Source: a virus
Lineage: Duplodnaviria; Heunggongvirae; Uroviricota; Caudoviricetes
Length of the DNA: 31,239 nucleotides
Virus record (IMG/VR): IMGVR_UViG_2671180673_000015
Reading direction: 5' to 3' (one strand)
In this document: piece after piece, positions 639-951 of the stretch
Layout of the letters: each line of letters starts with the position of its first letter
Position numbering within the stretch: the stretch's first letter is position 1
Position numbers and translations under genes: made by a program
The notes under the pieces: generated by a model
Seen by the model: the letters and a program-made list of their open reading frames with translations, nothing else
Database searches by the model: none
What the model was told of the DNA's origin: nothing

Positions 639-938
639 TCACCCACGATTAACCAACAGCCAGACCAGCAGACACGCCACCACCGGCACAGCAAAATCCA
701 TCAGGCTTGCCACATCCCAAGCTCGCGGATCAAAACCGCCCCACCACGGCATATTCATTCGCTTGCCATGCCCGAACATTTCAATCCAGCGATATTCTGC
801 CTGGGTATGTTCACGCGCAATGAAGAACGTACAACCGGCTATCGCTCCGTAAGCCCAGTTTCCGGTAAAAAGACCAACCAGTACCTGCGCAGCCACAGCA
901 CAAAGTGCATGAAGGAAAGGTGTTATATCCATTTTCAT
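639..938 (-). CDS. Small integral membrane protein (about 99 aa, three predicted hydrophobic segments), unknown function; moron between the fibre module and attR
   Basis: ORF track 639-947; start moved to ATG at 938 (MKMDITPF...) or possibly 932. Hydrophobic stretches FLHALCAVAAQVLVGLFTG, AYGAIAGCTFFIA and LMDFAVPVVACLLVWLLV. No family recognised. Confidence 0.6.
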   Translation of the reverse strand: MKMDITPFLHALCAVAAQVLVGLFTGNWAYGAIAGCTFFIAREHTQAEYRWIEMFGHGKRMNMPWWGGFDPRAWDVASLMDFAVPVVACLLVWLLVNRG

Positions 939-951
939 CCTACCCAATAAA

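Follow-up and report, generated by a model that had tools for sequence, protein, structure and literature searches.

What does a small membrane protein do when its gene lies between the tail-fibre genes of a lambdoid prophage and the attachment site? The question is raised by a minus-strand gene near the left end of a 31,239-nt stretch of viral DNA that was analysed as a whole and is called the window here. At positions 91-105 the window carries ttagtataaaaaagc (reverse complement GCTTTTTTATACTAA), which we take from established knowledge to be the lambda att common core and thus the prophage end, and beyond this core the left end of the window is bordered by the bio operon and ybhB. These two features identify a lambdoid prophage at attB-lambda, viewed from the att end on the tail-gene side. 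Positions 400-1100 are 100% identical to Escherichia coli strain 582. RefSeq annotates the stretch as a single long minus-strand late operon with the order QuuD, essD/rrrD/rzpD, terminase to J, lom, side fibre, a 93-amino acid protein, a Peptidase_S74 (S74) fibre and the membrane-protein gene, after which no other intact gene precedes the lambda att core. The original prediction, made from the sequence, had placed the gene between the fibre module and att, and the att core with its bio/ybhB side bears this out.

The gene directly upstream (975-2015, minus strand) encodes a 346-amino acid distal tail-fibre protein with a C-terminal Peptidase_S74 intramolecular-chaperone domain; an ambiguous base, n, at position 1174 gives an X in its translation. 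Before it lie the gene for the acidic 93-amino acid protein, p93 (2025-2306, minus strand; PHROG 1361), and that for the side tail fibre protein (2303-4702, minus strand), which is supported by both the ORF and the RefSeq annotation and features a prophage tail-fibre N-terminal domain. All E. coli lambdoid and SSU5-like contexts seen have p93 alongside the membrane protein. A Comamonas protein in the equivalent position (PHROG 18574) shows, in its N-terminal half, a weak relationship to p93, which may be a fibre adaptor, a chaperone or a functional partner. Within the side fibre gene, tandem repeats with a 189-nt period and 85% matches (3710-4144) encode Ala/Ser/Thr/Glu-rich units of the KTSETNA type, which results in a strong AT-skew anomaly. 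The lysis cassette essD/rrrD/rzpD is 25 kb from the membrane-protein gene, and the prophage also features an ompC-like porin gene between Q and the lysis genes (27208-28290, plus strand), an iss/bor serum-survival lipoprotein gene (25140-25433, plus strand) and an IS21 insertion in the nin region (29883-31239, plus strand).

On the other side, the only thing that remains between the membrane-protein gene and att is a pseudogene remnant of a tail-fibre assembly gene (500-619, minus strand), which lies directly downstream and marks a recombination junction. A partial Rfam match to IS009 (543-641, minus strand; 71.9 bits, below the gathering score of 117) starts at the stop codon of the membrane-protein gene and overlaps this remnant (region 378-619), while the 'nucleocapsid protein' that RefSeq annotates at 378-527 appears to be spurious. 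The region from 378 to 641 is probably the recombination junction of the fibre module.

The minus-strand ORF runs from a TTG at position 947 (102 amino acids) to 639, with in-frame ATGs at 938 (99 amino acids) and 932 (97 amino acids). The real start is most likely the ATG at 932 rather than the TTG at 947, because RefSeq annotates 639-932 (WP_000355609.1) in the genome that is identical over 400-1100, because the 97-position PHROG 1443 profile aligns to residues 6-101 of the 102-amino acid ORF, because a TAGGA lies 5 nt before this ATG, and because the homologue in phage Gally begins at the equivalent Met, behind AAGGAG. The coding sequence, stop codon included, is thus 639-932, and the preceding 15 nt (933-947, minus strand) form a 5' leader with the TAGGA ribosome-binding site (938-942), the in-frame ATG (936-938) and the TTG (945-947), in which both upstream starts are probably unused. 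A protein of about 99 amino acids encoded at 639-947 had originally been proposed; the ORF stands, with 99 amino acids corresponding to the ATG at 938, whereas the start moves to the ATG at 932 and the length to 97 amino acids.

This ORF is a genuine protein-coding gene. It is under purifying selection, with a dN/dS of 0.13 over 49 distinct alleles, and it is intact in 101 of the 106 full-length copies among the fetched loci, so the reading frame is conserved in related prophages. There is practically no chance that it is instead a fortuitous ORF in a degraded prophage end. Its surroundings, with pseudogene remnants and the doubtful 'nucleocapsid protein' call, could prompt such a reading, but the conservation data have already refuted it: besides the dN/dS value, the PHROG 1443 profile matches over its full length (E = 4.2e-59, profile positions 1-96 of 97), the family comprises 453 clusters across Proteobacteria, and the protein is modelled with a pLDDT of 94.

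A G+C hairpin lies between the fibre stop codon (975-977) and the ORF. It consists of five G-C pairs with a 5-nt loop (954-968, minus strand) and is followed by GUUUUAUU on the coding strand, which makes it a weak terminator-like element. It folds modestly better than shuffled sequence (z -1.79) and is identical in 16 other loci, not counting two copies of the window's own stretch. The original prediction had this hairpin (as 952-970) overlapping the start of the gene and took it as a sign that expression may be separate. The hairpin exists, but it sits upstream, 22 nt from the ATG at 932, and the second part of the claim fares no better, since the element is terminator-like, the gene is co-directional with the Q-dependent late operon, and a sigma-70 consensus scan of the minus strand over 933-1100, which weak or atypical promoters could escape, found no promoter-like site close upstream, including in the interval 940-975 where one had been suggested. 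The sole minus-strand consensus match in positions 1-2400 is approximately 360 nt upstream, within the fibre gene and beyond the hairpin, and promoter-like matches in the region are fewer than in shuffled sequence. Weak terminator-like sites also occur approximately 300 nt downstream of the gene (347-328 and 325-305), the clearer hairpin being the one upstream.

With no near promoter and a hairpin upstream of its start, the gene reads as a distal gene of the late operon and not as a classic moron. Among moron features, a base composition differing from the neighbours is present (53% G+C, compared with 44-46% in the fibre genes) and an own upstream promoter was not found. In this it differs from lambda lom and bor/iss, both of which are present in the prophage (4767-5366 and 25140-25433) and which likewise encode small envelope proteins in or beside the late operon, but have promoters of their own and belong to the Ail/Lom and Bor/Iss families. 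The layout in the window argues for late, Q-dependent expression, and in this prophage the protein would be made mainly after induction, through read-through of the weak terminator under Q antitermination. Of the proposal that the gene is a moron behind the last tail gene, the position at the junction therefore holds, whereas an own transcription unit is not supported for the window; a moron-like layout does occur in phage Gally, as described below.

AlphaFold2, run with a 62-sequence alignment, models the protein as a three-helix bundle with a pLDDT of 94.3 and helices at residues 4-23, 26-53 and 74-96. Hydropathy agrees, with helix 2 being weakly hydrophobic, so the three hydrophobic helices that had been noticed in the sequence are upheld. 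Helix 1 (864-923, minus strand) is strongly hydrophobic and carries a family-wide His8 and a Gln16 that is conserved among closer relatives. In helix 2 (774-857, minus strand) a membrane part rich in Gly precedes the juxtamembrane motif A-R-E-H-T-Q-A-E-Y-R-W-I, and residues 39-73 (714-818, minus strand) form a conserved polar segment with an NMPWWGGFD box. Helix 3 (645-713, minus strand), again strongly hydrophobic, carries Asp79 and Pro83, and the C-terminus ends one or two residues past it. R40, E41, Q44, A45, E46, R58 and W72 are invariant or nearly so across the family; in the widest alignment, these residues together with H8 and P83 are constant, while C34, C87, H42 and D2 are conserved in close relatives only.

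The conserved loop has an average of 5.4 Lys/Arg residues compared with 0.1 in the turn between helices 1 and 2, and the positive-inside rule therefore predicts it to be cytoplasmic, with the N-terminus inside and the C-terminus outside. The depositors' note on the phage 21 record instead gives two transmembrane segments (TMHMM), which would make the loop periplasmic, and the modelled topology of three helices with a cytoplasmic loop is only a prediction. The same record notes a cleavable signal peptide, which we rejected: helix 1 carries the family-wide His8 and is thus considered part of the mature protein. The original prediction had also excluded a signal peptide or lipobox. Residues 31-34 (IAGC) do formally fit the lipobox pattern, but the functional point stands, as this sequence is 30 residues in, has no basic N-region, falls within helix 2 and loses its Cys in distant relatives. 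Two further ideas about the conserved residues were discarded. A 'WWD' heme-handling motif of cytochrome-c maturation, suggested by MPWWGGFDxRxWD, has no Pfam hint and the wrong predicted topology, and the residues of a supposed metal site (Cys34, Cys87 and His42) are not retained by the more distant proteins of the family. Natural fusions with known domains were not found, although some members carry a soluble insertion of 45 residues in the loop.

The family corresponds to PHROG 1443, which is catalogued but uncharacterised, and its members occur across Proteobacteria and in the phages of these bacteria. The 453 clusters, defined at 50% identity and nearly all of 90-120 amino acids, came from a profile search against 1.84 billion representatives, while a word-indexed search yielded 583 relatives in Escherichia, Salmonella, Leclercia, Citrobacter, Aeromonas and Comamonas; the E. 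coli protein is about 60% identical to those of Aeromonas or Comamonas. Of 5426 complete E. coli genomes, 1900 contain the DNA of the gene; the median copy number is two and the maximum seven, and the E. coli copies are annotated 'hypothetical protein' without exception. Nissle 1917 and the classic phage 21 both have the gene. Among phages, tblastn matches came from lambdoid, P22-like and Aeromonas phages and a few others, with no HK97 or T4 record among the matches listed.

No usable match was obtained in Pfam, NCBIfam, PADLOC or the PDB (a profile search of PDB sequences), and the family has no fold match either; PhoR (E = 0.063) and RUS1 (E = 0.55) were the sole matches of these searches and were treated as noise. 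This agrees with the original view that the protein belongs to no recognisable family, and the homology search that had been suggested as a check retrieved no strong relative among characterised proteins. Literature searches for Ybl63 (the sole name in any source), for the accessions, for the phage 21 gene and for a small membrane protein behind tailspikes found nothing; a paper on the svsR sRNA proved unrelated, as svsR lies in cI. No description was found in the literature of a regular position behind receptor-binding genes, and it is this genomic context of the family that is the new result.

In lambdoid, P22-like, HP1/P2-like, SSU5-like and many environmental phages, as well as phages bearing diversity-generating retroelements (DGRs), the gene lies directly behind a receptor-binding protein gene. 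In phage 21 and many lambda-like phages the order is side fibre, p92 and then the membrane-protein gene, with a 12-nt gap after p92, and an SSU5-like phage-plasmid has the same gene order as the window. The stop codon of an S74 fibre gene abuts or overlaps the membrane-protein start in HP1/P2-like prophages of Aeromonas and Leclercia, while in other prophages the upstream gene encodes a tailspike (Leclercia), a LamG fibre (Chelativorans) or a spike with pectate-lyase and S74 domains (Desulfovibrio). Comamonas has a tail protein, a p93 relative and the membrane-protein gene, in that order. In DGR cassettes the target gene carries the variable repeat at its 3' end, and the membrane-protein gene lies between this repeat and avd. 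The Comamonas nitrativorans cassette (locus L116, 4785-8500) has its variable repeat at 5810-5928 of an Mtd-like target gene and its template repeat at 6697-6815, with mismatches at adenines, and two further loci (L118 and L202) share this layout.

The position was quantified in 159 diverse IMG/VR loci, 134 of which have a co-directional ORF of at least 300 amino acids within two positions upstream. These upstream ORFs fall into 36 unrelated clusters, whose representatives feature pectate-lyase-like (13), Peptidase_S74 (5), End_N_terminal (4), P22 Head_binding (2), Phage_tail_fib (2) and Tail_spike_N (2) domains. A specific link to S74 fibres, suggested by the first contexts seen, was therefore abandoned, given that S74 occurs in only 5 of the 36 clusters. 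Among 86 distinct junctions, 63 are no wider than 30 nt (36 overlaps with the upstream gene and 27 gaps of 1-30 nt), and the gene is usually translationally coupled to the receptor-binding gene. What follows it varies, from lysis cassettes, head genes and attP to avd with a reverse transcriptase gene or cargo. Such cargo lies right behind the gene in some phages: a cdtABC-like cluster in an E. coli phage locus (L196, 5662-7870), whose CdtB-like protein has an Exo_endo_phos domain, sitABCD in phage 21 (L002, 5386-8835), and umuD-like genes.

The P22-like phage Gally has a different arrangement, in the order tailspike, membrane-protein gene, attP and int. Here (L324, 3760-4300) the gene is preceded by a strong terminator and then by a 180-nt AT-rich spacer with a promoter-like site, and it replaces the gtrABC genes that P22 has between its tailspike gene and attP (L327, 6208-9323). 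This terminator and promoter-like spacer in the gtrABC slot point to a moron-like, lysogen-expressed use within the family, which thus serves within structural operons in some phages and as a unit of its own elsewhere.

Further copies are found away from tail genes. Stand-alone chromosomal copies have conserved synteny in several Aeromonas species (pirin - gene - RIO1), and no recognisable operator was found in the regions upstream of these Aeromonas copies. Sphingomonad chromosomal copies are near ligA, a CMAS-family (cfa-like) methyltransferase gene, nadB and aroG-type genes. The P1-like phage-plasmid p1_000533 carries a copy (L325, 4980-5288) among the accessory genes ea22/eaa/hot/humD/phd-doc, far from its tail genes, and copies also occur in Aeromonas phages that are not known to be temperate. 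Across the phage, chromosomal and P1-like plasmid contexts there is no constant partner gene. Since the protein works in all of these settings without one, it probably acts on its own at the host cytoplasmic membrane.

By analogy with known systems, we tentatively propose that the protein may be an inner-membrane factor for superinfection exclusion or envelope conditioning. The separate lysis cassette (essD/rrrD/rzpD) and the late-operon position of the gene were counted in favour of this explanation, as were the modelled fold and predicted topology, the lack of a close promoter-like site, the linkage and coupling to receptor-binding genes, and the chromosomal, P1-like plasmid and Gally copies that point to autonomy. 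The active surface would be the face formed by His8, R-E-x-x-Q-A-E-Y-R-W, R58, W72 and P83 on the cytoplasmic side, and the protein would render an infected or lysogenic cell refractory to further phages or, alternatively, condition the envelope for phages that carry the neighbouring receptor-binding protein. The roles in the original prediction, superinfection exclusion or modification of the host surface, are plausible candidates.

The closest parallel is P22 SieA, a small exclusion protein with three predicted transmembrane helices and a conserved cytoplasmic motif that was shown to be in the inner membrane (PMC10883804). Like the protein described here, SieA is small and has three predicted helices and a conserved motif, which in the new family is predicted to be cytoplasmic; SieA is prophage-encoded near the tailspike and immI, and acts alone. 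The two are not related in sequence (hhalign probability 0.07%), SieA is longer (162-164 amino acids compared with 97), and sieA, unlike the membrane-protein gene, has an annotated promoter of its own and is found on the other strand, upstream of the tailspike gene. The exclusion phenotype belongs to SieA and is predicted for the new family only by analogy. Receptor-blocking proteins such as Llp of T5 and Cor of phi80 and N15 are also genetically linked to the receptor-binding protein gene. These, however, are lipoproteins or factors of the outer membrane and change along with the receptor, whereas the membrane protein is constant and lacks a functional signal peptide or lipobox. The family cannot be a receptor-specific blocker, because the protein stays highly conserved beside receptor-binding proteins that are unrelated to one another.

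Several observations weigh against exclusion. PADLOC and the comparison with SieA give no homology link to it, the syntenic Aeromonas chromosomal copies resemble ordinary cellular genes and not defence cargo, and the supporting topology is predicted, with a weakly hydrophobic helix 2 and the two segments of the phage 21 record. In addition, part of the linkage to tail genes may be due to a general insertion hotspot at the end of the late operon, and the cdtABC, sitABCD and umuD-like cargo found right behind the gene shows that there is such a hotspot. That hotspot is the core of another reading, in which the position reflects insertion only and the protein is a cellular membrane protein of general physiology (ion, stress or membrane homeostasis) that phages carry as host-beneficial or neutral cargo. 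The Aeromonas synteny, the sphingomonad copies beside housekeeping genes, the adjoining cargo and the rise in G+C content over the fibre genes all fit this reading, but we consider it unlikely, given that many structural operons without relation to each other, some of them on contigs with head genes further on, have the gene overlapping a receptor-binding gene start to stop, unlike free-standing cargo, and that its position is far more regular than that of other morons.

An equally unlikely alternative is a modulator of envelope glycans or lipid carriers of the lysogenic-conversion type, which would inhibit or modify a conserved inner-membrane step of polysaccharide synthesis, for example one linked to undecaprenyl phosphate, and so change the receptors for the neighbouring tailspikes or fibres. 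The genes upstream of the family mostly encode tailspikes that bind or degrade glycans, the pectate-lyase-like clusters being joined by others with endosialidase-type domains, and the Arg/Glu/His face, conserved and located at the membrane boundary, would match the head group of a phospholipid or polyprenyl phosphate. The Gally gene also occupies the exact slot between tailspike gene and attP/int that holds the O-antigen conversion cassettes gtrABC in P22 and oac in Sf6. The gtrABC cassettes are divergently expressed, though, whereas the family member is a single 97-amino acid protein, very small for an enzyme, that is mostly co-transcribed with the receptor-binding gene and has no similarity to GtrA (hhalign probability 0.5%) or any Pfam family. 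It is furthermore constant across hosts with very different envelopes (sphingomonads lack LPS), while known glycan-modifying genes vary with the glycan.

Rather less probable is an accessory role in lysis timing, as an antiholin-like or holin-like membrane protein, even though several phage groups place the gene between the receptor-binding gene and the lysis cassette. In phage EC.W1-9 an annotated holin, endolysin and endopeptidase follow it, some contigs have a GTA_holin_3TM or Peptidase_M15_4 gene just downstream, and in Comamonas locus L003 and Aeromonas phage 62AhydR11PP the gene adjoins PHROG 3108 and other membrane proteins. PHROG 3108 itself (L003 6970-7518; L158 2499-2993) has no Pfam or PDB match and, by our reading, an SLT-like LQESR motif, and from its sequence it may be an unrecognised endolysin family. 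Size (about 100 amino acids) and three transmembrane helices are shared with class I holins such as lambda S105. Those holins have a charged C-terminal tail, however, where the membrane protein has none and features a long conserved loop instead, and an hhalign comparison with lambda S, using an S sequence entered by hand, was negative (probability 0.4%). A separate holin is already present in the window prophage and in the phages cited for this role, most contexts have no lysis genes nearby, and cellular homologues and the P1-plasmid copy do not fit. Least probable of these roles, and very unlikely in our judgement, is maturation or assembly of receptor-binding proteins, as a membrane-located counterpart of Tfa. 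The tight coupling to fibre and spike genes suggests it, as does the fact that the gene takes the place of tfa, which is a remnant here and is not annotated beside the phage 21 side fibre gene. Yet fibre chaperones are soluble, while this hydrophobic protein had no tail-assembly match in Pfam or PHROG; the family stays the same beside unrelated fibres, many of its partner proteins have their own intramolecular chaperone, and copies exist without a nearby tail gene.

Exclusion or envelope conditioning thus remains our preferred, if tentative, reading. A broader proposal, possible but somewhat doubtful, is that the family is a hitherto unrecognised, near-universal companion of receptor-binding genes in phages of Proteobacteria, a borrowed cellular inner-membrane protein with a new mechanism directed at a conserved host membrane process. 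Such a mechanism could, for example, be a generic block of genome entry or the control of a lipid-carrier step.

Occurring in 1900 of the 5426 complete E. coli genomes, often in several copies, this is among the commonest unexplained prophage genes of the species, and phage 21 offers an easy experimental system for it. That very different phages have it so regularly behind a receptor-binding gene suggests a general step at the interface between phage and envelope. Should exclusion or a change of the envelope prove true, host range in phage therapy, competition between prophages and engineered tail-fibre swaps, which usually carry the membrane-protein gene along with the fibre, would all be affected. 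If the broader proposal of a borrowed membrane protein with a new mechanism is right, roughly one in three E. coli genomes would encode a member of a new class of proteins at the phage-host interface.
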